Shown here one piece after another: positions 11,699-59,772 of a DNA stretch of 64,000 nt. A program made the translations under genes and the position numbers. Every line of letters starts with the position of its first letter. The first letter of the stretch is position 1. The notes beneath the pieces are model-generated. The model saw only the letters and a list, made by a program, of their open reading frames with translations, was not told the DNA's origin and searched no databases. Source of the DNA: an uncultured Planctomycetia bacterium (GTDB taxonomy: Bacteria; Omnitrophota; Gorgyraeia; 2-02-FULL-51-18); NCBI GenBank assembly GCA_964373505.1, contig CAYJVC010000004.1, forward strand, positions 5,916-69,915. Direction: 5' to 3'.

Positions 11699-11814
11699 CC
11701 CACCCCCTGCTTTCTTCCGCCATCCATAGTTTCAATCCCACGATTGGCGGAATGATTCGTCAAAGACGAATCAAAAAATCCGCGGGATTTTTTAGAAGCA
11801 GGGGGTGGGGTCAT
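11695..11814 (-). repeat. family-A palindromic intergenic element (copy a) with 39-aa linker micro-ORF MTPPPASKK...RKQGVG
   Basis: Arms CCCCACCCCCTGCTT / AAGCAGGGGGTGGGG. The micro-ORF ATG overlaps the hemB TGA (ATGA) and its TGA overlaps the hemL GTG (GTGA). Confidence 0.75.
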
Positions 11815-12788
11815 CGCGCCAGCTTCCACCGCACGAGCGCTTTGGCCCAATAACTGATAATGAAATCGGCGCCGGCCCTTTTCAGGGAAAGATGCGTTTC
11901 GTAAACAGTCTTCTTTTCGTCCAGCCATTTTTGCCGCGCGGCGGCTTTGATCATCGCGTATTCACCGCTGACACTGTAGGCGCCGACAGGGCAGCCGAAT
12001 TTGTCCTTGATCCGCCAGAGGATGTCGCCGAAGGCGAGTGCGGGTTTTACGAGGAGCATGTCTGCGCCCTCCTCGAGGTCGGTCTGCGCTTCCCGGAGCG
12101 CTTCGTGGCTGTTGGCAGTGTTCATTTGATAGCTCGAGCGGTCCCCGAACGCGGGCGCGTTTTCAGCCGCGTTACGGAATGGCGCGTAGAAGGAGGAGGC
12201 ATACTTCACGGCATAGGACAGGATCGGTGTGTGCTGAAAGCTGTTTTTATCCAGAGTGCCGCGGATCGCCAGGACTCGCCCGTCCATCATATCGGAGGGC
12301 GCGAGGACATCGGCCCCGGCCCGGGCGTAAGACAGCGCGATCTTAGCGAGTGTCCCCAGCGTCGCGTCGTTGGCGATCCGGCCGTTTTGCAGGTGCCCGC
12401 AGTGGCCGTGGCTTAAATATTCGCATAGGCAAACGTCCGCGAAGATCAGAAGCTTTGAGCACCTTTTTTTGAGAGCGCTTATCGCGCGCTGTACAACCCC
12501 CCTTTTGGCGAAGGCTTGGCGCCCGGCAGCGTCTTTTTTCGCCGGGATGCCGAAGAGGATGATGGAAGAAACCCCCAGCGACTCGAGCCTTGCGGCCTCT
12601 TCGGTCAGCGTCTTCGGGGAGAACTGAAACTGACCGGGCATCGACGGGATCTCCGCGGTCCCCGATAAACTTTCTTTAACAAAAAGAGGCTGGACGAGGT
12701 CCTTGGTGAGAAGCGAATGCTCTTCTATCAGCGCGCGCAGCTTCGGGTTCTCTCGGAGCCTTCTGAGTCGGACGAGCGGGTATTTCAC
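11811..12788 (-). CDS. hemB: porphobilinogen synthase (delta-aminolevulinic acid dehydratase)
   Basis: 325 aa with a typical HemB N-terminus (LRRLRENPKLRALIEEHSL) and active-site lysine region. Confidence 0.9.
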   Translation of the reverse strand: MKYPLVRLRRLRENPKLRALIEEHSLLTKDLVQPLFVKESLSGTAEIPSMPGQFQFSPKTLTEEAARLESLGVSSIILFGIPAKKDAAGRQAFAKRGVVQRAISALKKRCSKLLIFADVCLCEYLSHGHCGHLQNGRIANDATLGTLAKIALSYARAGADVLAPSDMMDGRVLAIRGTLDKNSFQHTPILSYAVKYASSFYAPFRNAAENAPAFGDRSSYQMNTANSHEALREAQTDLEEGADMLLVKPALAFGDILWRIKDKFGCPVGAYSVSGEYAMIKAAARQKWLDEKKTVYETHLSLKRAGADFIISYWAKALVRWKLAR

Positions 12789-33181: not shown

Positions 33182-34407
33182 GCCTTGTTTGACCTTTCGA
33201 GTTTGAATTTGTTGTGCAAAAGCCGGACCGCTTTTTCAGCCTCGCTTTTTTTGACGACGCAGGAGATCTTGATCTCGCTGGTGGAGATCATCTCGATATT
33301 GATCCTGTTCTTTCCGAGCGTCTCAAACATCGCGGCCGCAACACCCGCATGGCTTCGCATGCCGATGCCGACCACGGAGACCTTTGCGATATTCGGATCG
33401 AGCAGCACTTCTTTTGCGCCGATCTTCTTCGAGGCGGCTTTGAGCGCGTGCACGGCCCGGAGAGCGTCGCCTTTGGGCACCGTGAACGAGATGTCCGTGT
33501 TGAAGGCGGACTTCCCGATATTCTGGATGATCATGTCCACATGGATCCCCTTGTTCGCAAGGGTCTTAAAAATGCCCGCCGCGATGCCGGGCCGGTTGGG
33601 GACGCCTCGCACAGAAATTTTAGCTTCGTTTTTATTTAAAGTTACGCCGCGGATCAATACGTCTTCCATTGAGCTATCCTCCTTCACGATCCATGTGCCT
33701 TCGTTTTTTGTAAAACTGCTCCTGACATGAAGCGGAATATGGTGCTTACCGGCCAACTCGATAGACCGCGACTGCATGACCTGTGCGCCGCTCGAGGCCA
33801 TTTCCAGCATCTCCTCATAACTGATCTTCCGGATTTTCCTGGCTTTTTTCACAAGGCGCGGGTCCGTGGTGAATATTCCCTCGACATCCGTGTAGATCTC
33901 GCAGGCGTCGGCCTCCAGCGCCTTTGCAAGCGCAACCGCGGTTAGGTCGCTGCCGCCGCGGCCGAGTGTGGTGATGTCATTTTGCGGGTTGACTCCTTGA
34001 AAGCCCGCCACGATCACAACCTTCTTATTCTTAAGCTCCCGTAAAATACGTTGGGTATTGATATGGCGGATGCGCGCGCAGGTGTGCGCGGGGCTTGTGC
34101 GAATGCCCACCTGCCAGCCCGTAAATGAAACAGCCGCGCTCCCGAGCTTCTCGAGCGCCATCGCCAGAAGCGCCATGGAGACCTGCTCCCCCGTGGACAT
34201 CAGAACATCGAGTTCCCGCTCGGAAGGTTTTCGTGTGATCCGGGAAGCGAGCCCCAAAAGTTCGTCCGTCGTGTCGCCCAACGCACTCACCACGACCACG
34301 AGGCGGTGCCCTTTTTTTCGGGTGTCATCGATCCGGCGGGCGACATTTTTGATCCGGTCGGGATTTGCGACGCTTGAGCCGCCGAATTTCTGCACGATCA
34401 GTTTCAT
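33178..34407 (-). CDS. lysC: aspartate kinase
   Basis: MKLIVQKFGGSSVANPDRIKNVA start and C-terminal ACT domains. The track ORF includes a 15-aa extension that is really the family-A element. Confidence 0.9.
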   Translation of the reverse strand: MKLIVQKFGGSSVANPDRIKNVARRIDDTRKKGHRLVVVVSALGDTTDELLGLASRITRKPSERELDVLMSTGEQVSMALLAMALEKLGSAAVSFTGWQVGIRTSPAHTCARIRHINTQRILRELKNKKVVIVAGFQGVNPQNDITTLGRGGSDLTAVALAKALEADACEIYTDVEGIFTTDPRLVKKARKIRKISYEEMLEMASSGAQVMQSRSIELAGKHHIPLHVRSSFTKNEGTWIVKEDSSMEDVLIRGVTLNKNEAKISVRGVPNRPGIAAGIFKTLANKGIHVDMIIQNIGKSAFNTDISFTVPKGDALRAVHALKAASKKIGAKEVLLDPNIAKVSVVGIGMRSHAGVAAAMFETLGKNRINIEMISTSEIKISCVVKKSEAEKAVRLLHNKFKLERSNKA

Positions 34408-34490
34408 CCCACCACCTCTTTTCGAGGCGGCATAGCCGCCTCCGCGTGACAAACTGAAATTGAAAATTTCAAAAGAGGGGGTGGGGTCAT
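34404..34490 (-). repeat. family-A palindromic element (copy b) with 28-aa micro-ORF MTPPPLLKFSISVCHAEAAMPPRKEVVG
   Basis: Arms CCCACCCCCTCTTTT / AAAAGAGGTGGTGGG. Its ATG overlaps the apgM TGA and its TGA overlaps the lysC ATG (ATGA at both ends). Confidence 0.75.
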
Positions 34491-35632
34491 TTCAAAAAAT
34501 GCTCCATGAGCGGGTGTCCTTCAGGGAATTGAAGTTTGCTTTGAGCCGCCGTTTTTTCGTTGAAGCCCGGGTGCTTTTCCGCGGCGAATCCGTGCCCCGC
34601 GATGAGGAACGGCACCGGCCCGTGAGCAGCCGAACGGCTCGCGGAGGATGTCGCCGTGTCCGTGCAAACGAGCAAACGGTGATCCCCCAGGTTTTCCAGG
34701 CACTTCGTGGCAATTCCCACAACCTGCGCATCAAAGCGTTCGATCAGACGAATTTTTGTTTTCCAGGGATCGGTTTCGGGTTGTACCTGGTCTGCGGCCA
34801 TGTACACGAACGTGAGTTCATGGTTTCGGAGCGCCTTTTCAAGGTCGTCGACGACCTTGAAACCCAGGGACAGTCCGAGCCCCTTGGCAAAATCAGCCTG
34901 AGAAAATACGGCGCCGTCCACGCCAAAGCGATCCTTGAAACGGGGAAGCCGGGGCCGGCGGCCCTGCCCCCAGGGCCAGATCATGTTCGCCGGATTTTCC
35001 CCGAGGTCTATCCTGACCCGGTTGATCTCATGGTGCTCCAGAACGGTCTTGGATTTTTCCATGAGACTTGTGATGACCTCGGCGTCTTCCCCCTTCGGGA
35101 GCACCTTGGCCATTTTCTGACCGATCGCCCGTGAAGGCGGAACGCACTCCAGCTCATCGAGACTTTCGGCCTTTTCAGGGTCACGGATCATCAGGATATT
35201 TTTGTAGCCTTCTCTCGGATAGAACTTGATCTGCGGGCTTGAGAGTTTTTTATTGAGTTCCTCGATCAAGAGTGAGGACTCCTCGGGCGGAATGAAGCCT
35301 GCGCTTACATCTGCCAGAAGCCCGTCCGAAACCGTGACAAGGTCGCAGCGGAACGCGATCTCATTGTCGTCCTGGGAGATACCGGCTGCGGCGGCCTCAA
35401 GCGGCGCAACCCCCGTGTAAAATTCTTCCGGAGGGTAACCCAGAATGGCCATCGCCGCGACGTCGCGTGTTAGGGCCAATTTAGGCGACGTGAAGATCGC
35501 CGAACCCACACGGCCTTTTTTTGCCAATTGATGCAAAAATGGGGCTTTTGCCAGTTCCATCGGCGTGCGGCCGCCCAGAGCCTCGACCGGATCGTCCGTG
35601 GCCGCTTCGCAAACCAACACCGCGTATTTCAC
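34487..35632 (-). CDS. cofactor-independent phosphoglycerate mutase (archaeal ApgM type); by context a candidate non-orthologous homoserine kinase
   Basis: 381-aa ApgM-family protein that starts with GTG. It is embedded between lysC and thrC with hom upstream, and no classical thrB is present in the block. Confidence 0.6.
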   Translation of the reverse strand: MKYAVLVCEAATDDPVEALGGRTPMELAKAPFLHQLAKKGRVGSAIFTSPKLALTRDVAAMAILGYPPEEFYTGVAPLEAAAAGISQDDNEIAFRCDLVTVSDGLLADVSAGFIPPEESSLLIEELNKKLSSPQIKFYPREGYKNILMIRDPEKAESLDELECVPPSRAIGQKMAKVLPKGEDAEVITSLMEKSKTVLEHHEINRVRIDLGENPANMIWPWGQGRRPRLPRFKDRFGVDGAVFSQADFAKGLGLSLGFKVVDDLEKALRNHELTFVYMAADQVQPETDPWKTKIRLIERFDAQVVGIATKCLENLGDHRLLVCTDTATSSASRSAAHGPVPFLIAGHGFAAEKHPGFNEKTAAQSKLQFPEGHPLMEHFLK

Positions 35633-35715
35633 CCCATCCCCTCTTTCTGAGGCGCCAACGGCGCCTCGGCGTTGTACGCTGAAATTGAAAAATTCAAAAG
35701 AGGGGATGGGGTCAT
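35629..35715 (-). repeat. family-A palindromic element (copy c) with micro-ORF MTPSPLLNFSISAYNAEAPLAPQKEGMG
   Basis: Arms CCCCATCCCCTCTTTT / AAAGAGGGGATGGGG. It makes an ATGA overlap with the thrC stop and a GTGA overlap with the apgM-like start. Confidence 0.75.
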
Positions 35716-36770: not shown

Positions 36771-38074
36771 GGCTCGACCCGTATCACGACCGTTTTTTCG
36801 CGAACGTCCTTGGCCCGGTCGATCTCGGAAAGCGCCCCTCTCAAGTCCCTTTCCTCCGCCTCATACGTAAGGATGATGACGGGAACCGAGCGGCTTGAGT
36901 GAGATTCCTTCTGGTGCACGCTCAAGATGGAGATCCCGTGTTTCCCTAGGCTTTGGGCGATCCGGCCGAGAACCCCCGGCCGGTCCGCCACCTGAAAACG
37001 CAGATAATATTTTGAGACGAGTTTCCCGATCGGCAGCACTTTCTGCGGCGTCGCGGACCATGACGCGCAGGCTTCTACATCGGCCTCCTGAGAAATTTTT
37101 TTGGCAATGTCGATCACGTCGCTCACGACGGCGGAAGCGGTTGGGAACATTCCCGCGCCGCGGCCGTAAAAAAGAAGATCGCCGGCCTGATTGGCATGAA
37201 CGAACACGGCGTTGTAAACGCCGCGCACATGGGAAAGCGGGTGGTCCATCGGCAGCATCGTCGGATGCACGCGAAGCTCAAGCCCCTCTTTCAGCTTTTT
37301 GCCGATCGCCAGGAGTTTGATCGCGTAGCCAAGCTCCTTCGCATAGGTCACATCCGCGGCGTTGAGCGAACGAATGCCTTCCACGTGGATCGACCGGAAC
37401 GGAAGCTCGGCTCCAAAGGCGAGGCGCGCGAGCAGGGCCAATTTATGCGCGGAGTCGGTCCCGTCGATGTCGAGCGCGGGGTTCTTTTCGGCGTAGCCTT
37501 TCCGCTGAGCCTCTTTTAGAGCTTCGTGGAAGGGGCTTGCGTTCTCGGACATGGCCGACAGAATGCTGTTGCAGGTCCCATTCACGATGCCCAGAAAATG
37601 TGAAATTTTATTGGACGCCAGGCCCTCCGTTAGTGATTTGACGATTGGGATCCCGCCACAGACACTCGCCTCGATCCCCAACTTCCTATGGTGGAGAAAG
37701 GCCTCATTAAAAAGGCTCTTGCCCTGCTCCGCCAACAGCGCCTTGTTGGCCGTCACGACGTGCTTGCCATGGCGAAACGCTCCAAGAATGATGCCTTTTG
37801 CAGGATGGACCCCTCCTATCAACTCGACCACGATGTCGATCGTCGGGTCTTTCCAAAGATCGGAAGGACGACCCGTCAGAAGCGCGCGCGGCACCACGAG
37901 CGGCCTTTTTTTGGAAACGTGCCTTACGCAGACTTTTTTGATCACAAGCCGCAATCCGGTTTTGGCCTCGATTTCTTTGGCGCCGGACCGGAGGATCCGG
38001 TACACACCCCTTCCCACGGTTCCAAGCCCCAGAATTCCTATAGCGATCGTTTTAGCCGGCAGGGATCCGGTCAT
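36767..38074 (-). CDS. hom: homoserine dehydrogenase (with C-terminal ACT domain)
   Basis: IAIGILGLGTVGRGV Rossmann N-terminus, 435 aa. Confidence 0.9.
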   Translation of the reverse strand: MTGSLPAKTIAIGILGLGTVGRGVYRILRSGAKEIEAKTGLRLVIKKVCVRHVSKKRPLVVPRALLTGRPSDLWKDPTIDIVVELIGGVHPAKGIILGAFRHGKHVVTANKALLAEQGKSLFNEAFLHHRKLGIEASVCGGIPIVKSLTEGLASNKISHFLGIVNGTCNSILSAMSENASPFHEALKEAQRKGYAEKNPALDIDGTDSAHKLALLARLAFGAELPFRSIHVEGIRSLNAADVTYAKELGYAIKLLAIGKKLKEGLELRVHPTMLPMDHPLSHVRGVYNAVFVHANQAGDLLFYGRGAGMFPTASAVVSDVIDIAKKISQEADVEACASWSATPQKVLPIGKLVSKYYLRFQVADRPGVLGRIAQSLGKHGISILSVHQKESHSSRSVPVIILTYEAEERDLRGALSEIDRAKDVREKTVVIRVEP

Positions 38075-38093
38075 TTTTCTCTTTCATAAATTG

Positions 38094-38169
38094 TCGGGGT
38101 GGTGAGATTTGAACTCACGATCTCGCGCACCCCAAGCGCGCGCTCTGGACCAAGCTGAGCCACACCCCG
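38094..38169 (-). tRNA. tRNA-Pro (GGG anticodon)
   Basis: Cloverleaf CGGGGTGTGGCTCAGCTTGGTCCAGAGCGCGCGCTTGGGGTGCGCGAGATCGTGAGTTCAAATCTCACCACCCCGA with anticodon loop TTGGGGT. CCA is not encoded. Confidence 0.8.
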
Positions 38170-38177
38170 TATAATTT

Positions 38178-39188
38178 TCATAGGTTTTCCTTGTAAGGCT
38201 CGCGGTGCATCAGCGCTTTCACCACCTGACGCGGCTCCGCGCCTTTGAATAAAATATGATAAACCGCTTCCGAAATAGGCATGGCAATTTTGTGCTTTCT
38301 GGCCAATCGGGTGGCCGCCTCGGCGGTCGCGACACCTTCTACGACCATCTCAGTGCCTTTCAGGACATATTTAAGGCCGACGCCTTTCGCGATCTCTTTG
38401 CCAAGCCAACGGTTGCGGCTTTGGGGACTGAGGCAGGTCGTCGTCAAATCACCCAGGCCGCTTAAACCCATGAATGTCTCGCGCCGGGCGCCCATGGCTG
38501 TCCCGAGTCTGGCCATTTCCGCCAGGCCGCGCGCAAAAAGCACGGCGCGCGTGTTCGCGCCGAACCCGAGGCCCTCCACGATCCCGGAGCAGATCGCGAT
38601 CACATTTTTGATCGACCCCCCGAGCTCGACACCCACCAGGTCGTCGTTTTCAAAAAGGCTAAATGCGGCTGTCTCAAAGATCTTTCTTATTTTTTTCGGG
38701 TCTCCGCGGCGGTTGGAAGCAACGGAAGCGGCCGAGGGCATTTTCAGCGCGACCTCGCGGGCGATGCAGGGGCCTGAGATCACACTGAGCGGAACGCGTC
38801 CGAGCTCATCCGCCACCACTTGGGACATGGTTTTGAGGCTTTTTGTCTCAATGCCTTTTGCGACCGACACAAAGCTCAGATGCCGAAGTCCTGTCTTGCC
38901 GATTTTTTTCAGCACGCCGCGCATGAATTGCGACGGCGCCGCCAACACCGCGATGTCCGCTTGACGGCAGGCCTCATGAATGTCCGGGGTCAGCCGCACC
39001 TTTTCCGGTATCCGAAAGCCGGGTAGAAATTTTACATTCTCCCTTTTTCGCCGGATTTCTTCCACGTATTCGGGAAACGCGCCCCACAGACGGACTTCAT
39101 ATCCTTTTTCCGCCAAAAGCAGCGCCAGCGTCGTGCCCCAGCCGCCGTCGCCTAAAATGCTTATTTTTGTATCTTTATATACCGTCAT
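38178..39188 (-). CDS. gpsA: NAD(P)H-dependent glycerol-3-phosphate dehydrogenase
   Basis: KISILGDGGWGTTLALLLAEKGYEV Rossmann N-terminus, 336 aa. Confidence 0.9.
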   Translation of the reverse strand: MTVYKDTKISILGDGGWGTTLALLLAEKGYEVRLWGAFPEYVEEIRRKRENVKFLPGFRIPEKVRLTPDIHEACRQADIAVLAAPSQFMRGVLKKIGKTGLRHLSFVSVAKGIETKSLKTMSQVVADELGRVPLSVISGPCIAREVALKMPSAASVASNRRGDPKKIRKIFETAAFSLFENDDLVGVELGGSIKNVIAICSGIVEGLGFGANTRAVLFARGLAEMARLGTAMGARRETFMGLSGLGDLTTTCLSPQSRNRWLGKEIAKGVGLKYVLKGTEMVVEGVATAEAATRLARKHKIAMPISEAVYHILFKGAEPRQVVKALMHREPYKENL

Positions 39189-41506: not shown

Positions 41507-43309
41507 TTAGGACTCGATCTTTAAAGCGGCCAGGAATGCCTCTTGTGGGATCTCCACTTTGCCGAACTGTTTCATGCGCTTCTTGCCCTCTTTCTGCTTT
41601 TCCCACAGCTTGCGTTTTCTCGTGATGTCGCCGCCGTAGCATTTGCTCGTGACGTTTTTTCCCATGGGCCTTACGGATTCGCGCGCGATGATCTTTCCCC
41701 CGATCGCGGCCTGGATGACCACCTCGAACATCTGCCTGGGGATGAGCTCCTTTAGTTTTTCGCAGAGCGCGCGGCCCTTTGTTTGGGCCTTATCGTGATG
41801 CACCATGGAACTGAACGAATCGCAGATCTCCGAGTTGATGAGGATGTCGAGTTTCACGACGTCACTATCCCGGTGCCCCTTCACCTCGTAGTCCAGCGAG
41901 CCGTAACCCTTCGAAATGGATTTGACGCGGTCATAGAAATCAACGATGATCTCGGCCAGCGGAAAGTCATAGATCACTTTGACCCTCTCCTCGTCGATAT
42001 GCTCGGTGGAAATGTACCGACCGCGGCGTTGCTCGCAGAGCTCAAAGATCGCGCCGATGCAATTTTGGGGAATGAGGATGGCGGCATGTACGAACGGCTC
42101 AAGGATTTCCCGGACCTGGCTCGGATCCGGCATCTTGGAAGGATTGTCCACTTCAACGAGGTTTCCGTCTAACTTCCGCACCTTGTAGACGACGCTGGGC
42201 GTGGTGATGACGAGACTCATGCCATATTCGCGCTCCAGTCTTTCCTGCACGATCTCCATATGGAGAAGTCCGAGGAATCCGCACCGGAAGCCAAACCCGA
42301 CGGAAGCCGAGTTTTCTATTTCATAAACGAACGAGGAGTCGCTCAAGGACAGTTTTTCTATCGAGTCCTTCAGCGCCTGGAAATCCGCAGAGTTGACCGG
42401 ATAAATGCCGGCAAACACGAGCGGGCGGATCTTCTTGTAACCCGGGAGCGCTTCCTCCGTCGGACTCAGCGCGTCCGTGACGGTGTCCCCGTTTTCCACC
42501 TCTTTTGCGTTTCGGATGTTGCAAGAGACATAGCCGACTTCGCCGGGCCCGAGGGATTCACAAGCTGTAGGTTTGGGCGTCAGGTTGCCGATGCCCAACA
42601 CATCGTAGGTTTTCCCCGCGGCCAGCATCTTTATTTTCATGCCCTTTTTCAGGACCCCGTTGAACACACGAACGTACACGATCACGCCCTGGTATGCGTC
42701 GTACTGGGAGTCAAAAATAAGCGCCTGAAGCTTTTTAGCCGGGTCCCCTTCCGGCGGCGGGATCACCTCCACCACCCGATCCAGGATTTGGGTGATGCCG
42801 GTCCCCATCTTGGCGCTGGCGAGCAGGATCTCATGCTCGTCGATTCCGAGATATTTGTGGATCTGTTTTTTTACCTTTTCCGGTTCGGCCGTGCCGAGGT
42901 CTATCTTATTGATGACGGGAATGATCTCGAGGTCATTCTCCATCGCCAGGTACAGATTGGCCACGGTTTGCGCCTCGACGCCCTGACCGGCGTCCACAAG
43001 AAGCAGCGCCCCCTCGCAGGCGCGCAGGGACTTGGCGACCTCGAACGTGAAGTCCACGTGGCCCGGCGTGTCGATCAGGTTGAGCGTGTAGTTCTTGCCG
43101 TCTTTTTTGGAATGATAATTGATCTTGACCGCGCTCGCCTTGATCGTGATGCCGCGCTCCTGCTCCAGCGCCATATCGTCCAGGAGCTGGTTGTGGAATG
43201 TGCGGCTGTCAATGGCGCCGGTGTGCTCGAGGATACGGTCGGCTAGCGTGGACTTGCCGTGATCGATATGCGCGATGATCGAAAAATTACGGATATGCGC
43301 CTGCCTCAT
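41507..43309 (-). CDS. lepA: elongation factor 4
   Basis: 600 aa with a GTPase start IRNFSIIAHIDHGKSTLADR and a LepA C-terminal domain. Confidence 0.95.
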   Translation of the reverse strand: MRQAHIRNFSIIAHIDHGKSTLADRILEHTGAIDSRTFHNQLLDDMALEQERGITIKASAVKINYHSKKDGKNYTLNLIDTPGHVDFTFEVAKSLRACEGALLLVDAGQGVEAQTVANLYLAMENDLEIIPVINKIDLGTAEPEKVKKQIHKYLGIDEHEILLASAKMGTGITQILDRVVEVIPPPEGDPAKKLQALIFDSQYDAYQGVIVYVRVFNGVLKKGMKIKMLAAGKTYDVLGIGNLTPKPTACESLGPGEVGYVSCNIRNAKEVENGDTVTDALSPTEEALPGYKKIRPLVFAGIYPVNSADFQALKDSIEKLSLSDSSFVYEIENSASVGFGFRCGFLGLLHMEIVQERLEREYGMSLVITTPSVVYKVRKLDGNLVEVDNPSKMPDPSQVREILEPFVHAAILIPQNCIGAIFELCEQRRGRYISTEHIDEERVKVIYDFPLAEIIVDFYDRVKSISKGYGSLDYEVKGHRDSDVVKLDILINSEICDSFSSMVHHDKAQTKGRALCEKLKELIPRQMFEVVIQAAIGGKIIARESVRPMGKNVTSKCYGGDITRKRKLWEKQKEGKKRMKQFGKVEIPQEAFLAALKIES

Positions 43310-43392
43310 GCGGGTTTCACCCCACCCTCTGATCGGCTCATCTTTGATGAACCGATCGCTCTAAGATCGTTGCGATCAGGCGGTGGGGTCAT
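43306..43392 (-). repeat. family-A palindromic element (divergent copy d) with micro-ORF MTPPPDRNDLRAIGSSKMSRSEGGVKPA
   Basis: Arms CCCCACCGCCTGATCG / CGATCAGAGGGTGGGG. It makes ATGA overlaps with the phosphohexomutase stop and with the lepA ATG. Confidence 0.7.
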
Positions 43393-48151: not shown

Positions 48152-48938
48152 GGATGGCCTTTGCGAACGGGCGCACAAATTTTTTTGCGAACGCCTCGGC
48201 GTTCAAATGAAGATGCGCGGCCAGCGTGTTTACCAGGGCGCTGCCTACGATGACGCCGTCGGCGATCTTTGACACCTGCTTCGCACGGGCAGGATCTGAG
48301 ACGCCGAAACCCACGCACACCGGGAGTGCCGTCATTTTCTTGATAGCGGAAATATTTTTACGGACGCTCTCCGTCACAAGGTGATGGGCGCCGGTTACGC
48401 CGGTCAGGGAAACGTAGTAAATAAAACCCCTCGAGGCTCCTACGATAAGCCGGCGCCGTGCCCCGGTGCTTGTGGGCGCCAAAAGATACACCAGGTCCAC
48501 GCCGTTCCTGCGCATGAGCGCGCGGATGTCTTTTTCCTCGTCCGGCGGTAGGTCCGGCACTATCAAACCGTCCACGCCGGAGTCGCGCGCGGCCTTCGCG
48601 AAATGAGCCGGGCCCATCGCGAGGATCGGATTGAGATAGCTCATGAGGAGGATCGGGGTGCTTGATTTCCTGCGGGCTTTTTTCACAAGCGCTAAAATTT
48701 TACGCAGCGTCGTGTGTCGCTTGAGCGACCGGTTGGAAGCCTCCTGGATGACGGGCCCGTCCGCCAAGGGGTCTGAAAAAGGCACCCCCAGCTCAATGAG
48801 GTCCACCCCCGCCTTCTCCAATGTGCCGATCAACTCCCCGGTCATTTTGAGGCTTGGGTCGCCGGCCGTGATAAAAACGACAAGCGCCTTTTTCCCTTCC
48901 TTTTTCAGCGCTTTGAATTTTTTTTCTATACGATTCAC
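48144..48938 (-). CDS. trpA: tryptophan synthase alpha chain
   Basis: 264 aa that starts with GTG and is typical of TrpA (LVVFITAGDPSL...). Confidence 0.9.
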   Translation of the reverse strand: MNRIEKKFKALKKEGKKALVVFITAGDPSLKMTGELIGTLEKAGVDLIELGVPFSDPLADGPVIQEASNRSLKRHTTLRKILALVKKARRKSSTPILLMSYLNPILAMGPAHFAKAARDSGVDGLIVPDLPPDEEKDIRALMRRNGVDLVYLLAPTSTGARRRLIVGASRGFIYYVSLTGVTGAHHLVTESVRKNISAIKKMTALPVCVGFGVSDPARAKQVSKIADGVIVGSALVNTLAAHLHLNAEAFAKKFVRPFAKAIHD

Positions 48939-49021
48939 CCCACCCCCTCCTTTTGAGACAACGATGTTGTCTCAATGCTATGCATCAAAATTGAAAATTT
49001 TAAAGGAGGGGGTGGGGTCAT
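48935..49021 (-). repeat. family-A palindromic element (copy e) with micro-[31 protein letters not shown]
   Basis: Arms CCCCACCCCCTCCTTT / AAAGGAGGGGGTGGGG. It makes an ATGA overlap with the trpB stop and a GTGA overlap with the trpA start. The AAGGAGG Shine-Dalgarno site lies in the 3' arm. Confidence 0.8.
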
Positions 49022-50223
49022 AGATGCAAAACCTTTGAAACGCTTTCCATGTCTTTGTCGCCCCGTCCCGAGAGGCAAACCACGATCACTTCTTTCTTTT
49101 TAAAGCGTGATTTGTGTTTGGCCAGATACCCGAACACGTGCGCGGTTTCAAGCGCCGGAATGATGCCCTCGGTTTGGCTTAAAATTTTCATCCCCAAGAG
49201 CGCTTCCTTGTCGGTCGCCGATACGTATTCCGCGCGGCGGATCTTTTTCAGGTACGCATGTTCAGGGCCTACGCCGGGATAGTCGAGACCCGCCGAGATC
49301 GAGTGCGCGAGTTTCACCTGTCCGTCCCGGTCCTGCAACACCTCGCTTTTTGACCCGTGCAGGACGCCGATCTTGCCCAAAGACAGTGTCGCCGAATGGC
49401 GGTCCGTGCCCAGGCCATGGCCTGCCGCCTCCACACCGATAAGTTTCGTTCTGCTTTTAAGGAAAGGATAAAAAAGGCCGATGCTGTTCGACCCGCCGCC
49501 CACGCAGGCGATGCAGGTGTCGGGCGAACGAACCCCCAGAGGCCTTAACTGCGCAATCGTCTCTTTTCCGATCACCGATTGAAAATCCCTCACCATCACG
49601 GGGTACGGATGAGGCCCGATCACCGAGCCAATAATGTAATGCGTGTCCTTCACATGAGTGACCCAGTCGCGGATCGCCTCGTTCACGGCGTCTTTCAAGG
49701 TCCGCGAGCCGGATCTTACAGGGATCACGCGCGCGCCGAGGAGTTTCATGCGGAATACGTTGAGCGCCTGCCGCTCGATGTCCACCTGCCCCATGTAAAC
49801 ATCGCAGGGAATACCGAAAAGAGCGCACACGGTCGCGGTCGCAACGCCATGCTGCCCGGCTCCCGTTTCGGCGATCACGCGCTTTTTGCCCATGCGAAGC
49901 GTCAAAAGCGCCTGCCCAATCGTGTTGTTGATCTTGTGGGCGCCGGTGTGGAGAAGGTCCTCCCGCTTAAGATAGACTTTTTTCACGCCGAGATATTCGG
50001 CCAGGTGCCGGGCTTCGGTGAGCGCAGTCGGGCGACCGGCAAAATTCCTCAGGTAATGGCTGACTTCCTTTTTGAATTTCGGATCGAGCCGAGTGCTCCG
50101 GTAAGCTTTCTCAAGCTCTTCCAGCGCGGCCATCAAGGTTTCGGGCACGTACTTCCCTCCGTACGGCCCGAAGTGGCCGCGCGAGTCCGGAACTTTGGTT
50201 CGGCGGTTACGCTGATCTGGCAT
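49018..50223 (-). CDS. trpB: tryptophan synthase beta chain
   Basis: 401 aa with a PLP-binding region HTGAHKINN. Confidence 0.95.
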
Positions 50224-50920
50224 TTTGGATGAATTCTTTCAAAAGTTCATGGTCCTTGATCCCCGGGCGCTTTTCCACGCCGCTCGAGACGTCCACGCCG
50301 TAGGGTGAAAGTGTCTGAATGGCTTTCCGGACGTTGCTGGGACGAAGCCCCCCTGAAATAATCACTGGTTTTAGTCGATCTCGAAGGTCACGGGTCCTGC
50401 CGCTCCGAGAGCCCATTTTTTGCAAGTGTTTCCCTTGCAAAAAATGGGCGCCCCTCTCCGCGTCACCCGTGACCTTCGAGATCTCGGCTGACAACATTTT
50501 CCAATTGAAATTTTGCCCGCTTCCTCCGTATCGGCCTGTTACTTGTGTGTCAAATAAATAGGCGTCCGCGGGAAAGCCGAGAAGATTTTCCAAATGAAAC
50601 CCTTCATCGACGCGAAAAGCCTTTATGACTTTACAACAACGGAGCTTTTTTGTATAGGCCCGGGTTTCGTCCCCGTGAAGCTGCACCGCGCTTAAGCCGC
50701 AGAGCCGGGCTATCATCTCCACTTTCCTGGGGTTTTCGTTCACGAAAACCCCCACCGTCGTGACAAAGGGTCCGAGTTTTCCTATGATCTCTTGTGCCCT
50801 TTTTGGGGTCAGCCGCCGCGGGCTTTTGGCGAATACGAACCCGAGCGCGTCGGCCCCACACCCAAGTGCGGCGCGCGCGTCGGGCAAATTCGTGATCCCG
50901 CAGATCTTAACCCTGACCAT
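50207..50920 (-). CDS. trpF: phosphoribosylanthranilate isomerase carrying an in-frame ~37-aa insertion derived from a family-B palindromic element
   Basis: VKICGIT...[16 protein letters not shown] then an extra [36 protein letters not shown] before the conserved PVIISGGL. Confidence 0.8.
50377..50487 (-). repeat. family-B palindromic element (copy B2) inserted in-frame within trpF
   Basis: CGATCTCGAAGGTCACGGGTCCTGCCGCTCCGAG...CGCGTCACCCGTGACCTTCGAGATCTCG with ~20-bp perfect inverted arms. Length is a multiple of 3. Confidence 0.75.
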
Positions 50921-52717: not shown

Positions 52718-53286
52718 TATTGGGTCAGACGGAGGAAATTTTTCAGGATCTCTTTGCCGGACTGCGTCAGGATGGATTCAGGATGGAACTGGACTCCGTA
52801 AACCGGGTATCGTTTGTGTTGAAGGCCCATGATCTCCTTTTCCCGGGTCTCGGCCGTGATCTCCAGCTCTTTCGGCAGGCTTTTTCTTTCGACCAAAAGC
52901 GAGTGGTACCTTGTACCGATGAACGGATTATCGATATTTTTGAAGATCCCCTTCCCGGTGTGGTGAATCCGCGAGGTTTTTCCGTGCATGAGCCTGGCCG
53001 CACCCACCACTTTTCCGCCGTAGGCTTCGCCTATGCACTGATGCCCCAGGCAGACGCCGAGGATCGGGACCTTGTCGCCGAGCTTTTGGATGATCTGGAG
53101 GGAAATGCCGGCCTGCTTCGGGTTGCCGGGGCCCGGCGAGATCACGATGCGGCTTGGTTTCATTTTTTTGATCCGGGGTATCGTGATTTCGTCATTCCTG
53201 AAAATTTTAAGTTCCTGCCCCATTTCGCCCAGGTACTGCACGAGGTTATAAGTGAACGAGTCATAATTGTCGATCATCAGGATCAC
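52717..53286 (-). CDS. trpG: anthranilate synthase component II (glutamine amidotransferase)
   Basis: [18 protein letters not shown]...GVCLGHQ. I place the start at GTG, overlapping the micro-ORF TGA; the track ORF reads on into the repeat. Confidence 0.85.
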
Positions 53287-53438
53287 CCCATCCCCTCCTT
53301 TTGAGACGACATTGCCCCATCCCCCGTTTGAATGATTGCTTCGCAATCAGTTCGCGGAGCGAACCAAACAGGGGATGGGGTTGTCGTCCCAATGCTTTGC
53401 ATAAGAATTGAAAATTCTAAAGGAGGGGATGGGGTCAT
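53283..53438 (-). repeat. family-A element (copy f) with nested internal duplicate; 51-aa micro-ORF MTPSPPLEFSILMQSIGTTTPSPVWF...SSQKEGMG
   Basis: Outer arms CCCCATCCCCTCCTTT / AAAGGAGGGGATGGGG plus an inner CCCCATCCCCTGTTTG / CAAACGGGGGATGGGG pair. ATGA overlap with the trpE stop and GTGA overlap with the trpG start. Confidence 0.75.
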
Positions 53439-55341: not shown

Positions 55342-55506
55342 TTAACATGTGTCATTTCGAGCGCCCGCCAAAGGCGGGTCCGCCTCAGGCGGAAAGCGAG
55401 ACCAGCCTGTCCCTGCCCGTCCGGCAGGCGGGCGGCAGGCAGGAATCTCATCAAGTCGTGTGATGAGATCTCTCGTCGCTTCGCTCCTCGAGATGACATG
55501 GTTCAT
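55342..55506 (-). repeat. family-C multi-hairpin GC-rich intergenic element between hisF and hisI, spanned by a 54-aa linker ORF
   Basis: Outer inverted repeat GTCATTTCGAGCG / CGCTCCTCGAGATGAC enclosing three further hairpins. The linker ORF MNHVISRSEATRDL... starts 3 nt after the hisF stop. Confidence 0.5.
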
Positions 55507-55509
55507 GTC

Positions 55510-56271
55510 CTACAATCTAACGTGGACTCCTTTTCTACTTAGGTATTGTTTCGCCTGTTTCACCGTGAATTCCCTAGTGTGAAAAATACTCGCCGCCAAG
55601 ACTGCGTCCGCCCGCCCCTTCGTAAGTCCATCGGCCAGGTGCTTCAGATTTCCGGCCCCGCCCGAGGCGATCACGGGAATTCCGACCGCATCCGAAACGG
55701 CGCGCGTAAGCCCAAGGTCATAGCCGCTTTTCGTGCCGTCCCGGTCCATGCTCGTGAGAAGGATCTCACCCGCGCCCAGCGCTTCCGCTTTCCGGGCCCA
55801 CTGAACCGCATCCAGCCCTGTCCTATTGCGGCCGCCGTGCGTGTAGACCTCCCACCCATGGCCGCGGGGCCTGCGTTTCGCGTCAATCGCCGCGACGATG
55901 CACTGCGAACCGAATCGTGAAGCGCTTTTCTTCAAGAACTTCGGATCTTTTACGGCCGCCGTGTTGATGGATACCTTGTCTGCGCCGGCGTTCAGGAGGC
56001 TGCGGATGTCTTGCAGAGTGCTGACGCCGCCTCCAACCGTGAGCGGCATGAACGCTTTCTCGGCCGTCCGCCGCACGAGTTCAAGCAGGATGCCTCTTTT
56101 TTCGTGCGAGGCCGTGATGTCGAGGAACACGAGCTCATCCGCGCGCTGCTTGTCGTAATAGACCGCGCAGGCGACAGGGTCGCCGGCATCACGAAGGTCC
56201 ACAAACCGCGTGCCCTTGACCACGCGGCCGGCCTTCACGTCCAGACAAGGAATTATACGTTTTGCGAGCAT
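55510..56271 (-). CDS. hisF: imidazole glycerol phosphate synthase cyclase subunit
   Basis: 253 aa reading [17 protein letters not shown]... Confidence 0.95.
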
Positions 56272-56984
56272 ACTTGAATAGCTTCTTTTAGCGTGAATTT
56301 GTTCTCATAAAGCGCTTTGCCTATCACGACCCCCCGGATGTTCTTTTTCTTGAGTTTCATCAGCGCTTCGAGGTCCTTCAGCGAACTCACGCCCCCGGAG
56401 GCGATAAGGTCGAGGTTCACGGCTTCACTGGCGTTTTTTATCTCTTTGATGTTCAACCCGGAAAGAGCCCCGTCCTTTGAAATATCCGTGTAGATCACGG
56501 TTTGCCCGCCGAGCTTTTCAAATTCTTTGATGAATTGGACGGCATTTATTTTTGTGACCTTTGTCCAGCCGTCCGTCGCGATGAGCCCGTCCCGTGCATC
56601 GACGCCGATGATCGCCTTCTCCTTAAGCTCGGACACGAGCTCTTTTATGAATCCTCTGTCGAGACACGCCTGGGTGCCGAAAATGACCCACCCGGCGCCC
56701 ATCGCCAGATACCTAGCCGCGGTTTGGAGGCTGCGGATGCCGCCTCCCACCTCGACCGGGGTCCGCACGGCGTTTAAGATCCGCTCGATCGTCTTTATGT
56801 TTTTCGGCTCGCCTTTCAGCGCCCCGTCCAGGTCCACCACGTGGATCCTGGACGCCCCCTCCTCTTCAAAGCGCCTGGCGATATCTTCCGCCTTTTCCGA
56901 ATAGATCTTTTCGGCCTTGAAGTCTCCTTGGAAAAGACGGACAACCTTACCGTCCTTGAGGTCGATCGCGGGGATAGGGATCAC
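56253..56984 (-). CDS. hisA: 1-(5-phosphoribosyl)-5-[(5-phosphoribosylamino)methylideneamino]imidazole-4-carboxamide isomerase
   Basis: Starts with GTG: (M)[16 protein letters not shown]... Confidence 0.9.
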
Positions 56985-57067
56985 CCCGCCCCCTCTTTCC
57001 GAGGCGCCAGCGGCGCCTCGACGTTGCAGGTTGAAATTAAAAATTTTGAAAGAGGGGGTGGGGTCAT
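56981..57067 (-). repeat. family-A palindromic element (copy g) with micro-[31 protein letters not shown]
   Basis: Arms CCCCACCCCCTCTTTC / GAAAGAGGGGGCGGGG. Its ATG lies 6 nt after the hisH TAG stop and its TGA overlaps the hisA GTG. Confidence 0.75.
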
Positions 57068-57073
57068 GCGAGG

Positions 57074-57688
57074 CTACTTAAGACGGACGAAGTTCTTGAC
57101 GATCCGAAGGCCCGCGTTCTGGCTTTTCTCGGGATGGAACTGGGTCGCAAAGATATTATCGCGCCAGACGCTGGAGCAGAATCCAAACCCGTAATCGGTG
57201 GTGGAGGAGACCCAGCTTGTGTCCTGGGGGGCGCCGTAGAACGAATGCACAAAATAGAAAAAATCGCCCGGACGGATCCCCTGGAAAAGCGGACAGTCTT
57301 TTTTTTTGAGGTTCAACGTGTTCCAGCCCATGTGCGGGATCTTGAGTCTTACTCGGAATTTTTTCACCTTTCCGCGGATGATCCCAAACCCGGCGGACTT
57401 GCGCTTGCCTTCATTTTCCTCGCTCTCCTCGAATAAAAGCTGCAGCCCCAAGCACAAGCCAAGATAGGGCGTGCCCCCAAGCACTTTTTTACGGATTACG
57501 TCCACCAGCCTCCGCTTCTCAAGCTCGCGGACAGCCGCCGTAAAGGCACCGACACCGGGCAGCACGATCATTTCGGCGTTGGCGATGTCGGATCGGGACG
57601 ACGTGATCCTGGGTTTGGCCCCGCCCTTCTCGAACGCCTTCTCGACGCTGCGGAGATTGCCCATCCCATAATCCACAATAGCAATCAT
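57074..57688 (-). CDS. hisH: imidazole glycerol phosphate synthase glutamine amidotransferase subunit
   Basis: MIAIVDYGMGNLRSV...GVCLGLQ. Confidence 0.95.
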   Translation of the reverse strand: MIAIVDYGMGNLRSVEKAFEKGGAKPRITSSRSDIANAEMIVLPGVGAFTAAVRELEKRRLVDVIRKKVLGGTPYLGLCLGLQLLFEESEENEGKRKSAGFGIIRGKVKKFRVRLKIPHMGWNTLNLKKKDCPLFQGIRPGDFFYFVHSFYGAPQDTSWVSSTTDYGFGFCSSVWRDNIFATQFHPEKSQNAGLRIVKNFVRLK

Positions 57689-57828
57689 TCGACAAACCAG
57701 TCTGGATTCGACGGGTCCTGCCGCTGCGGCAGCCCCAATGGTTCCCGCGTCACTGCGGAGCGCTGCGAGCGAATGGGGCGCCCCGCCTCCGCGTCACCCG
57801 TCGAATCCAAAATCTCTGCGAAAATCAT
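57685..57828 (-). repeat. family-B palindromic element (copy B3) filling the hisB-hisH gap, spanned by a 47-aa linker ORF MIFAEILDSTGDAEAG...NPDWFVE
   Basis: Arms GATTCGACGGGTCCTGCCGC / CGCGTCACCCGTCGAATC. The linker ATG overlaps the hisB TGA (ATGA) and the linker TGA overlaps the hisH ATG (ATGA). Confidence 0.7.
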
Positions 57829-58451
57829 AATTTCCCTTTTGTTGAAGGGATAAACTTAATGCGTTCGTCGAGCGCCGTGGCCCAATCGAGCGCCTTGGCA
57901 AGCGCTTTAAAGGTCGCTTCGATGATGTGGTGAGACTGCTCGCCCGCGATGAAATCCACGTGCAGCGTAAGCCCTAGGTGTCCGGCGAACGACTCCCAAA
58001 AGTGTTTGGCGTCCGCGAGCGTGTAGTCCCGATCGCCTTTTTTTTCACGAAGCGCCGGGTGATCGATCCATTTTGTTTTCGGGTGAGTGTGCATATGAAA
58101 CGAACCGCGTCCGCTCAAGTCAATGGACACGCGTGTTTGGGTCAGCGCCTCGTCGAGCGGTGCGCGGAAATCCGCGAATCGCCGTATCCCTTTTTTGTCG
58201 CCCAGCGCTTTTTTGAACGCCTCCCCGAGCGCTATGCCGACGTCTTCGTTCGTGTGGTGCTTGTCAATGTGAAGGTCCCCTTTGGCCTTGAGCACAAGAT
58301 CAAACAGCCCGTGCTTGGCCAAAGTTTCGAGCATATGGTCCAAAAAACCGATGCCGGTGCTGACTTTTGCACGGCCCTTGCCGTCGATGTTGAGCTCGAC
58401 GACAACGCTTGTTTCCTTCGTTTTTCTGCTATACTTAACCGCTCGTTTCAT
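57825..58451 (-). CDS. hisB: imidazoleglycerol-phosphate dehydratase
   Basis: 208 aa with IGFLDHML, HHTNEDVGIALG and HIIEATFKALA motifs. Confidence 0.9.
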   Translation of the reverse strand: MKRAVKYSRKTKETSVVVELNIDGKGRAKVSTGIGFLDHMLETLAKHGLFDLVLKAKGDLHIDKHHTNEDVGIALGEAFKKALGDKKGIRRFADFRAPLDEALTQTRVSIDLSGRGSFHMHTHPKTKWIDHPALREKKGDRDYTLADAKHFWESFAGHLGLTLHVDFIAGEQSHHIIEATFKALAKALDWATALDERIKFIPSTKGKL

Positions 58452-58546
58452 GTCAGCCCCGTTTTTTCACCCCATCCCCTATTTCGTGACGCAAAGCGTC
58501 ACCTTTTGATTTGCTTTGCAAATCAAGAAATAGGGGATGGGGTCAT
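58452..58546 (-). repeat. family-A palindromic element (degenerate copy h); micro-ORF truncated to MTPSPIS
   Basis: Arms CCCCATCCCCTATTTC / GAAATAGGGGATGGGG with a different internal loop. ATGA overlap with the hisD stop. hisB uses its own ATG 20 nt downstream. Confidence 0.65.
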
Positions 58547-59772
58547 TTGTTTTTATAAAACCTTATTTTCACGGATTCCACGTGCTTGGTCAACCCTTCC
58601 AGCCCTCCGATGTGTTCGATGGCGGACTTCACTTTTTCCAGCGCCTTGCGGTTATAGGAAATGACATGCGAGCTTTTGAGAAAGTCGCTCACCCCCAGGC
58701 CCGAAAAAAAGCGCGTGGTGCCATTGGTCGGCAGCACATGGCTCGGCCCCGCCAGGTAGTCCCCGACCGCCGTGGGCGTGTAGGGGCCGATAAAAATAGC
58801 GCCCGCGTGCTTCACGTCCTTCAGGATCCTTTGCGGGCTCTTCACGAGGATCTGCAAGTGTTCGGGCGCGATCTGGTTGATGACGTCCACACCCTGTTTC
58901 AGGTTTTTCACAAGAATGATATAGCCTCGGGCCGGAACTTTCCGGATGAGCTTCGCCAGGCGCTTCGAAGGCGTCACTAAGATCGCAGTGCCCATGTGGT
59001 GTTCGCTTTGTGCCAGGAGGTCCGCGGCCACAAAATCCGGGTCGGAATGGTCATTGGCCAGGATCACGACTTCCGAGGGGCCCGCGATCATGTCGATGTC
59101 GCAATAGCCGAATACCTGGCGCTTGGCCTCCGCCACATACGCATTGCCGGGGCCGATAATCTTGTCCACGCGCGGGATCGACTTGGTGCCGAGTGCCATC
59201 GCCGCAATGGCCTGCGCCCCCCCGACCTTAAAAATACCGTCGACTTTGAGGAGGTTCGCGACCGCCAGGATATGCGGATCCACGGACTTGTGTTCATCGG
59301 GAGGCGTCGCCAGATACACCTTTTCCACGCCCGCGATCTTCGCCGGAAGCACCGTCATGTACACGGTCGACGGCAGCGGCACGGTGCCGGCTGGGATGTA
59401 GATCCCGACGGATTCCAAGGGCCTCACCCTCTCGCCGAGGATCGCACCGTCTTCGGTCACCATTTTCCAGGAGCGCTTGGTCTGCTTGCGGTAGAAACGG
59501 TTGACATTCTCGACCGCCAGCTTAAGCGATGACACGAAATCGGGATGGAGGTTCTGGTAGGCGCCGTTTATTTCGCTTTCGGTGACACGGAGCTCCTTCG
59601 CGGAAAGCTTCACTTTATCGAATTTGCGCGTGTAGCGGAGCACGGCCTCATCGCCGTCGTTTTTCACGTCGTCGATGATGCGGCGCACCTTTTCCTCGAT
59701 TCGCCGGTCCCGCCGCACGGACCGTCGGAAAAGCTTCTCGAATTTCTTGCTCCAGGGTTTTATGATCTTCAC
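58543..59772 (-). CDS. hisD: histidinol dehydrogenase
   Basis: 409 aa with a HisD-like C-terminal catalytic region. Confidence 0.85.
   Translation of the reverse strand: MKIIKPWSKKFEKLFRRSVRRDRRIEEKVRRIIDDVKNDGDEAVLRYTRKFDKVKLSAKELRVTESEINGAYQNLHPDFVSSLKLAVENVNRFYRKQTKRSWKMVTEDGAILGERVRPLESVGIYIPAGTVPLPSTVYMTVLPAKIAGVEKVYLATPPDEHKSVDPHILAVANLLKVDGIFKVGGAQAIAAMALGTKSIPRVDKIIGPGNAYVAEAKRQVFGYCDIDMIAGPSEVVILANDHSDPDFVAADLLAQSEHHMGTAILVTPSKRLAKLIRKVPARGYIILVKNLKQGVDVINQIAPEHLQILVKSPQRILKDVKHAGAIFIGPYTPTAVGDYLAGPSHVLPTNGTTRFFSGLGVSDFLKSSHVISYNRKALEKVKSAIEHIGGLEGLTKHVESVKIRFYKNK

Follow-up and report, generated by a model that had tools for sequence, protein, structure and literature searches.

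How does a densely packed operon accommodate an inserted repeat whose reading frame closes before the next gene begins? The question is posed by a palindromic element lying between hisD and hisB in a 64-kb stretch of contig CAYJVC010000004.1 (assembly GCA_964373505.1), the whole of which is called the window here and in which all ~53 genes lie on the minus strand. The HisD of the window shares 91% identity with the Omnitrophica bacterium RIFCSPHIGHO2_02_FULL_51_18 protein and has more than 100 further matches that are Omnitrophota-type proteins. The element belongs to a repeat family, here termed family A, and is the sole one of its eight junction copies in the window without an open reading frame (ORF) that bridges the two flanking genes. 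On balance we favor the reading that it is an intact copy of a non-autonomous palindromic insertion element, similar to MITEs (transposable elements of the miniature inverted-repeat type) or to repetitive extragenic palindromes (REPs), which carries a core of the Y type and is tolerated through the ribosome-binding site (RBS) of hisB itself.

Read along the gene strand, the junction has the order ATGA – CCCCATCCCCTATTTC – TTGATTTGC·AAA·GCAAATCAA – AAG – GTGACGC·TTT·GCGTCAC – GAAATAGGGGATGGGG – TGA – AAAAACGGGGCTGAC – ATG(hisB), and all of the features described for it lie on the minus strand. The hisD ORF (histidinol dehydrogenase, 409 aa; 58543..59772) ends in ...AAC AAA TGA. Because its homologues are 408-414 aa long and carry PF00815, this TGA (58545-58543) is a genuine stop, and it is also the insertion point of the family-A copy (window 58467-58546). 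The stop overlaps an ATG within the tetranucleotide ATGA (58543..58546), which is found at the 5' end of 8/8 junction copies. This ATG opens a short ORF, ATG ACC CCA TCC CCT ATT TCT TGA (MTPSPIS*; 58523..58546), that covers the entire 5' arm and stops in the first hairpin. The 5' arm CCCCATCCCCTATTTC (58527..58542) is pyrimidine-rich and resembles an anti-Shine-Dalgarno (anti-SD) sequence. It is followed by core hairpin 1, TTGATTTGC-AAA-GCAAATCAA (58506..58526), a perfect stem of 9 bp that holds the first in-frame TGA, then by an AAG linker between the hairpins and by core hairpin 2, GTGACGC-TTT-GCGTCAC (58486..58502), a perfect stem of 7 bp that holds the second TGA of the frame running from the hisD ATGA to the hisB ATGA. 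The 3' arm GAAATAGGGGATGGGG (58470..58485) is purine-rich and SD-like, and the TGA that flanks it (58467..58469), a putative 3-nt target duplication, forms GTGA together with the terminal G of the arm. From the GTG of the element a mini-ORF, GTG AAA AAA CGG GGC TGA (MKKRG*; 58453..58470), extends to 1 nt before the hisB ATG, and the spacer AAAAACGGGGCTGAC (58452..58466) contains an SD-like GGGG for hisB that lies outside the hairpin. The hisB gene (imidazoleglycerol-phosphate dehydratase, 208 aa, PF00475; 57825..58451), whose N-terminus was aligned to those of relatives, begins at the ATG at 58451, 18 nt past the 3' arm, and this is the true start, with MKRAVKYSRKTKET aligning to MKRAIKLRRKTKET and MKRRAVLKRKTKET of the relatives. 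An earlier sequence-only reading of this locus had recognized a family-A copy between hisD and hisB, an ATGA shared with the stop codon of hisD, a micro-ORF ending after 7 codons and two small palindromes in the loop, and all of this is borne out, the ATGA lying at 58546-58543 and the arms (CCCCAYCCCC/GGGGRTGGGG, 16/16) and both palindromes being perfect. It had likewise given hisB a separate ATG downstream of the arm, which stands, at a distance of 18 rather than 20 nt.

With arms matching in 16/16 positions, hairpins in 9/9 and 7/7 bp and zero mismatches overall, the RNA of this copy is predicted to fold into a Y-shaped three-way junction of -51.6 to -53.9 kcal/mol (z -9.4 to -10.5). The copy is structurally intact and probably a fairly recent insertion. 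Its insert measures 76 nt including the TGA. Bridging copies are 2 mod 3 in length, this one is 1 mod 3, and the frame at hisD/hisB is therefore unable to end on the arm TGA even without internal stops. The hisD ATGA and the arm TGA are 80 nt apart, which is not a multiple of three (3n), and the hisD ATGA and the hisB ATGA are 99 nt apart, which is 3n and includes two in-frame TGAs. Could a sequencing error have closed the frame? The sequence-only reading had named this check, and a contig assembled independently by Logan (L001, run ERR4904390) matches window positions 59584-57778 with 100% identity, both in-frame TGAs included, so no intact ORF emerges. In addition, each TGA is paired to a TCA in a perfect hairpin, and therefore one sequencing error could not reopen the frame. 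The Logan contig itself stops at 57778 inside a repeat of a second family, family B, as expected of a multi-copy repeat that breaks assembly.

The closed frame stands out against the remaining copies in the window, where the arm motif has 14 matches (<=3 mismatches) versus 0.74 expected and family A comprises 8 junction copies and 1 nested copy. The family arms are CCCCAYCCCC/GGGGRTGGGG, and the inverted arms ACCCCAYCCCCTNYTT / AARNAGGGGRYGGGGT are present at hisD/hisB. The hisD/hisB copy lies at the upstream stop in gene orientation, with a 5' ATGA and a 3' TGA as its flanks, and the other 7 junction copies have the same flanks. The 7 other copies (11695-11814, 34404-34490, 35629-35715, 43306-43392, 48935-49021, 53283-53438 and 56981-57067) each contain a stop-free 3n frame that leads from the upstream ATGA to the TGA overlapping the downstream start, with lengths of 87, 87, 87, 87, 87, 120 and 156 nt; the other frames of these copies are stop-free in only 9/35 cases. 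In 6/7 bridging copies the downstream start, a GTG and once an ATG, is made by the 3' end of the element. The seventh, at 43306-43392, is a diverged copy missed by the arm search, and its downstream start is an ATG 7 nt beyond the TGA of the arm. Starts borne by the arm are real, as HisA (MIPIPAIDL) and aspartokinase (MKLIVQKFGG) begin exactly at the GTG/ATG of the element. At hisD/hisB, the GTG of the element (58470) opens MKKRG* only, and hisB starts at 58451 instead.

The cores of all family-A copies are made of short perfect hairpins with 3-nt loops. Five canonical copies adopt a cloverleaf fold, in which an outer stem of 17 bp carries three small hairpins (AT-rich, 4-bp and 9-bp GC) and 12/36 pairs are compensatory, with changes on both sides. 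The hisD/hisB core is not a canonical cloverleaf but of the Y type, an outer stem with two 3-nt-loop hairpins, and the same architecture is present at 53315-53380 and 43306-43392. The core types gave no reliable multiple alignment, and the Y class was assigned by architecture. The copy at 53315-53380 is nested, lying in opposite orientation in the third-hairpin loop of the cloverleaf copy 53283-53438; it is flanked by TTG…TTG, and with its length of 69 nt (3n) it leaves open its host's bridging ORF of 51 codons. Two copies have mismatched arms, namely 34404-34490 (3' arm GGTGGTGGGA), where the downstream start is now ATG rather than GTG, and 43306-43392, yet both keep open bridging ORFs of 28 codons, which suggests that the bridging ORF outlives the palindrome. 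The uniform orientation of the junction copies might be attributed to stops in the inverted frame, but this was rejected since three canonical copies stay open when inverted; given that all window genes lie on one strand, orientation relative to transcription is inseparable from orientation relative to replication. A tRNA-derived cloverleaf was also rejected, as the arm polarity is opposite to that of the tRNA-Pro acceptor stem and the elements have no tRNA call.

Evidence for insertion comes from the his–trp regions of relatives, which were compared for L119-L121 (HisD identity 91%), L123 (90%), L122 (85%) and L124-L126 (83-84%). Family-A arms are absent from about 90 kb of syntenic DNA in these relatives. 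At trpE/trpG, the empty sites read GCC-ATGA-TTTTAATG in L119 and GCA-ATGA-TCCTCATG in L122, and the filled site of the window reads GCC-ATGA[CCCC…GGGG-TGA]TCCTGATG. At trpB/trpA, CCT-GTGA-CGCG in L119 corresponds to TCT-ATGA[…GGGGTGA]ATCG in the window, and at hisH/hisA, ATGA-TTGCTATCCCC in L119 corresponds to ATGA[…GGGGTGA]TCCCTATCCCC. A plain (A/G)TGA in the relatives against ATGA[CCCC…GGGG]TGA in the window indicates insertion after (A)TGA with duplication of the TGA. At hisH/hisA the hisH stop lies 6 nt upstream, which shows the target to be a sequence rather than a stop/start overlap. The last G of the element and the duplicated TG together create a new GTG start, for which the purine-rich arm (GGAGGGG) 7-8 nt upstream provides an SD sequence. 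By analogy with these three pairs of filled and empty sites, the TGA at 58467..58469 may be the corresponding duplication at hisD/hisB.

Where, then, did the hisB start come from? The 18 nt that follow the element (GGGGCTGACATGAAACGA) are identical in 18/18 positions to the native hisD-end/hisB-start of L122 and near-identical to that of L125; the junction reads AAAAACGGGGCTGACATGAAACGA in the window, AAAAGGGGCTGACATGAAACGA in L122 and AAAAGGGGCTGACATGAAAAGA in L125. In L122 the native arrangement is …AAA AGG GGC TGA C ATG AAA CGA, and L125 has the same arrangement, such that in both relatives one base (C) separates the end of hisD (…KRG*) from the ATG of hisB. This order is preserved in the window as the mini-ORF MKKRG*, a C and the ATG. 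Judged by this match, the SD-like GGGG and the ATG of hisB are ancestral, with the start lying outside the predicted stem and being older than the insertion.

These observations can be joined into a model. Family A inserts at 5'-(A)TGA-3' junctions and duplicates the TGA, and its usual copies replace a -4 overlap by an upstream stop/ATG overlap, a stop-free 3n ORF, an SD-like 3' arm and a GTGA start. The outer stem of 16-17 bp is predicted to bury the downstream SD and start in the mRNA. The computed probability that the downstream RBS (-15..+3) is unpaired is 0.04-0.20 in the six arm-start copies and 0.47 for hisB. A ribosome that ends the upstream gene, or one that uses the old start, would translate the bridging ORF and open the stem, then terminate at its UGA and begin anew at the GUG overlapping it. 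It is thus likely that translating the bridging ORF keeps the downstream gene expressed, by unfolding combined with termination-reinitiation; for other genes, both RNA unfolding and reinitiation are established models (reviewed in PMC12548453). The Y-core copy, in contrast to these usual copies, would by the simplest history have inserted at a hisD TGA from which the downstream hisB ATG was already 15 nt away. With its core out of the 3n+2 register and a TGA in both hairpins, its ORF stops after 7 codons. An initiation region of hisB that is ancestral and outside the stem makes a non-bridging insert tolerable, and it is probably to this position of the RBS that hisD/hisB owes its tolerance.

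Several points weigh against this reading. The hisD/hisB junction has no exact empty site among the relatives, as L123 has a plain ATGA overlap and L119 a different insert, and the presence of the 15-nt spacer before insertion is argued from parsimony, with duplication in the A-rich hisD end or deletion in the relatives as candidates for its origin. The L119 insert at this junction is 49 nt long and carries an open 18-codon ORF from ATGA to ATGA. Neither an autonomous partner nor a transposase for family A is found in the window, and the Y-core class is supported by three copies in 64 kb whose core sequences are only loosely alike. The hisB RBS, with its weak SD (CGGGG), is predicted to be open to a moderate degree only (0.47), and a bridging ORF persists in the copy at 43306-43392 even though a spacer and an accessible RBS (0.57) are present there too. 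The 99-nt 3n span between the two ATGAs, of hisD and of hisB, is compatible with a once-open frame closed by two TGAs, and all of the claims on translation and RNA structure are predictions.

An alternative hypothesis is that the element passes ribosomes on to hisB by a relay. Ribosomes that terminate on hisD would restart at the overlapping AUG, the 7 codons would melt the outer stem, the SD-like AGGGGAUGGGG of the 3' arm would be exposed together with the GUG (or with AUG GGG UGA and then the GUG), and MKKRG*, ending 1 nt before the hisB AUG, would hand the ribosome over. The geometry fits this proposal closely in that the short ORF (58546-58523) covers the arm (58542-58527), the stretch of ATGGGGTGA and the GTG mini-ORF spans 58475-58453, and the TGA-C-ATG at the hisB start is the native arrangement in L122 and L125, while coupling by RNA unfolding and reinitiation has its established precedents (PMC12548453). 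However, geometry is its whole basis, the mini-ORF is equally well explained as a relic of the former 3' end of hisD, and GUG initiation beside a refolding stem of -52 kcal/mol may be inefficient. We regard the relay as unlikely; under it the hisD/hisB copy would be no control for lost read-through. The sequence-only reading had offered the copy as just such a natural control. The contrast is real, this being the sole non-bridging copy in the window, but the context of the site is confounded and the control is not a clean one, because the hisB RBS lies outside the stem, unlike in the other copies, and because the 7-codon ORF spans the 5' arm in full, so that its translation might still melt the stem.

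A second alternative, and the view taken by the sequence-only reading, is decay: a canonical family-A copy would have had its core replaced or mutated and lost its bridging ORF, and hisB would have fallen back on a separate ATG. Consistent with this, the copy is the only one of 8 at junctions to lack a bridging ORF, and its 3n frame of 99 nt between the hisD and hisB ATGAs is broken by two TGAs only. Nevertheless, arms and hairpins are free of mismatches, and with both TGAs paired to TCAs each would require a compensated double change. The copies that are truly degraded (34404-34490 and 43306-43392) keep their ORFs, which is the opposite of what decay predicts, and the description of the copy as decayed is therefore not upheld. 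Nor does the loop appear to be replaced by two unrelated palindromes, given that 3-nt-loop hairpins make up all of the cores and that two further Y-core copies recur in the window (53315-53380 and 43306-43392). Finally, the hisB ATG and the 15 nt upstream of it match the native junction of L122 and L125 and predate the insertion, so that the start is no fallback produced by lost read-through. Decay thus seems improbable, a little more so than the relay.

Much less plausible is that the element is no selfish repeat but serves the his operon specifically, in cis-regulation or mRNA processing, for example as an attenuator, a site for RNase III, a barrier to 3'-exonucleases that stabilizes hisD mRNA, or a terminator. 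A very stable hairpin directly after a stop codon would suit such a role, and in E. coli REP-type hairpins stabilize upstream mRNA and, near a stop codon, affect translation of the upstream gene. However, the hisD/hisB junction is empty or otherwise filled in every relative compared, and the lack of conservation at this site argues against a his-specific regulator, as does the presence of the same arms at unrelated operon junctions. No Rfam family reaches the gathering threshold for the element (only two tRNAs do so in the whole window), the best local match being a generic miRNA hairpin model at 23 bits against a 90-bit threshold. A terminator is further disfavored in that no U-tract follows the stem on the gene strand, where GAAAAAACGGGG comes next, and the terminator scan made no minus-strand call there. 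Recoding or readthrough of TGA, by which the 33-codon frame between the ATGAs of hisD and hisB would be translated, can be set aside as highly improbable, for although the frame is 3n and ends on a TGA overlapping the hisB ATG, TGA ends hisD at the length of more than 100 homologues (408-414 aa) and functions as the stop codon at almost every -4 junction in the window.

The reading of an intact insertion also raises the question of how widely family A is distributed and whether other repeats behave alike. A scan of viral contigs returned no matches. A scan of metagenome contigs with a tight arm pattern gave a single match, L118, which is eukaryotic-looking (a kinase fragment) and was rejected as unrelated. 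In a scan of a genome collection for ACCCCNNCCCCT…AGGGGNNGGGGT, the listed matches were rejected as unrelated GC-rich palindromes from many phyla, none of which had ATGA/TGA flanks or family-A cores. Among the matches listed (L002-L117), CCTCACCCCAACCCCTCTCCC…GGGAGAGGGGTTGGGGTGAGG palindromes occur in Stenotrophomonas, Sphingomonas, Mesorhizobium, Gemmataceae, Anaerolineae and others, and these palindromes share with family A only the C4-N2-C4 motif of the arms.

Within the window, about half of the (A/G/T)TGA -4 junctions are filled by repeat insertions. A family B palindrome lies in frame inside trpF (50207-50920) at 50377-50483, behaving like a Rickettsia palindromic element (RPE); TrpF of the window has 237 aa and that of relatives 204-211 aa, the surplus residues corresponding to this palindrome, and L119 TrpF carries a shorter additional segment at this position. 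Family B also fills the hisB/hisH spacer (57685-57828) with a 47-codon ORF from the hisB-stop ATGA to the hisH-start ATGA, where L122 and L123 have a plain GTGA overlap. At the same hisB/hisH position, a GTGA junction, L119 carries a near-perfect hairpin of ~190 nt (11903-12125; -125 kcal/mol) whose ORF ends at the apex and hence does not bridge, with the hisH SD (AAGAAGGA) and ATG 3' of the hairpin. This non-bridging hairpin, with SD and ATG beyond it, is a parallel to the hisD/hisB copy. A third repeat type, GTCATCYYGAG…GCGAAGCGA…GATCTC, is found in the window at 55348-55510 (hisF/hisI), where its ORF stops 12 nt short of the likely ATG of hisI. It is also found at the hisD/hisB junctions of relatives, in L119 at 11231-11279 and in L126 after 4988; in L119 it has ATGA…ATGA flanks and an open 18-codon bridging ORF. 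Apart from the repeats, a tRNA-Pro(GGG) gene (38093-38169) lies between two ATGA junctions (38071-38181), and a 36-codon stop-free frame crosses the tRNA gene, possibly by chance.

Taken at the level of families, we tentatively propose, at somewhat less than even confidence, that several unrelated repeat families of this Omnitrophota lineage (A, B and GTCATC…GATCTC) are specialized in colonizing (A/G)TGA junctions and coding sequence by means of frame-preserving ORFs, which they either bring along or acquire. To this family A would add an SD and a GTG hidden in the stem, as a palindromic and convergent counterpart of the mycobacterial interspersed repetitive unit (MIRU). The hisD/hisB copy would be the exception that shows the bridging ORF to be maintained by selection site by site, required only where the downstream RBS lies in the stem, and not to be intrinsic to the transposing unit. 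If true, the family would constitute a natural repeated experiment in translational coupling, with the same cassette of stem, SD and GTG placed at many operon junctions, and a perfect but non-bridging copy at a site with an independent RBS would provide the contrast case. Such a contrast could show, for an uncultivated phylum, to what extent the opening of a structured initiation region depends on an ORF upstream of it, and how selfish DNA persists in packed operons without polar effects. For annotation, the consequence is that GTG starts in the 3' arm are real and that ORFs of 28 codons (87 nt) fall below the thresholds of gene callers. The hisD/hisB copy alone is an ordinary repeat insertion, and its value is that of a contrast case and not of a clean control.

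How does family A compare with known systems? In phage f1, hairpin-dependent coupling of genes VII and IX relies on a stem that hides the downstream initiation region until upstream translation opens it, and the canonical family-A copies would work in the same way. However, such structures are fixed and gene-specific rather than dispersed repeats, and at hisD/hisB the RBS lies outside the stem. RPEs likewise keep frames open upon insertion, as does family B in trpF, but they lie inside protein genes and become part of the protein, whereas the copy at hisD/hisB lies between genes and has a closed frame. Like family A, REPs and the bacterial interspersed mosaic elements built on the same theme (REP/BIME), which are associated with REP-associated tyrosine transposases (RAYTs), are extragenic GC-rich palindromes that occur in operons and fold in mRNA (PMC3733652). 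REPs are imperfect palindromes of 20-40 nt with a GTAG or CGTC end tag (PMC3733652), whereas the hisD/hisB element has 75 nt, CCCC…GGGG ends and no such tag, and family A, unlike REPs, shows a target duplication. By its size and the missing tag the element is no REP in the strict sense.

Bacterial MITEs such as Correia/NEMIS, ERIC and RUP (PMC10969869) share with family A a small size, the lack of a transposase, terminal inverted repeats (TIRs) and a short target duplication, and further a presence in many copies, co-transcription with flanking genes and presence or absence among relatives. The hisD/hisB copy is 75 nt long, has 16-nt TIRs and contains no ORF beyond one of 7 codons. As for the target duplication, it is TGA in three sister copies, and hisD/hisB has the flanks TGA…TGA at a site for which the relatives offer no exact empty counterpart. 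In contrast to MITEs, family A has no known partner insertion sequence, targets (A)TGA at stop/start junctions and not TA or similar, and possesses a core that is a set of small perfect hairpins. Bridging ORFs are not mentioned in the MITE review (PMC10969869).

The closest functional analogue is the MIRU, whose logic is shared by family A taken in its entirety. MIRU units are reportedly about 46-101 bp long. They are short mobile repeats, gene-oriented and located at operon junctions (Supply et al. 1997, via review PMC12548453), and they insert at start codons with an internal ORF that is -4-coupled to the downstream gene, which renders the insertion nearly neutral (PMC12548453). The internal ORF of a MIRU overlaps both the flanking stop and the flanking start (-4), as do the ORFs of the sister copies of family A, while the hisD/hisB copy has the 5' overlap only. 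MIRUs are direct or tandem repeats of Mycobacterium, whereas the hisD/hisB element is a single palindromic unit in Omnitrophota. Family A, moreover, forms a hairpin or cloverleaf with inverted arms of 16-17 nt and supplies its own SD and GTG, both predicted to be buried in the stem. By this comparison, the canonical members of family A are, in their predicted mode of working, the palindromic analogue of MIRUs.

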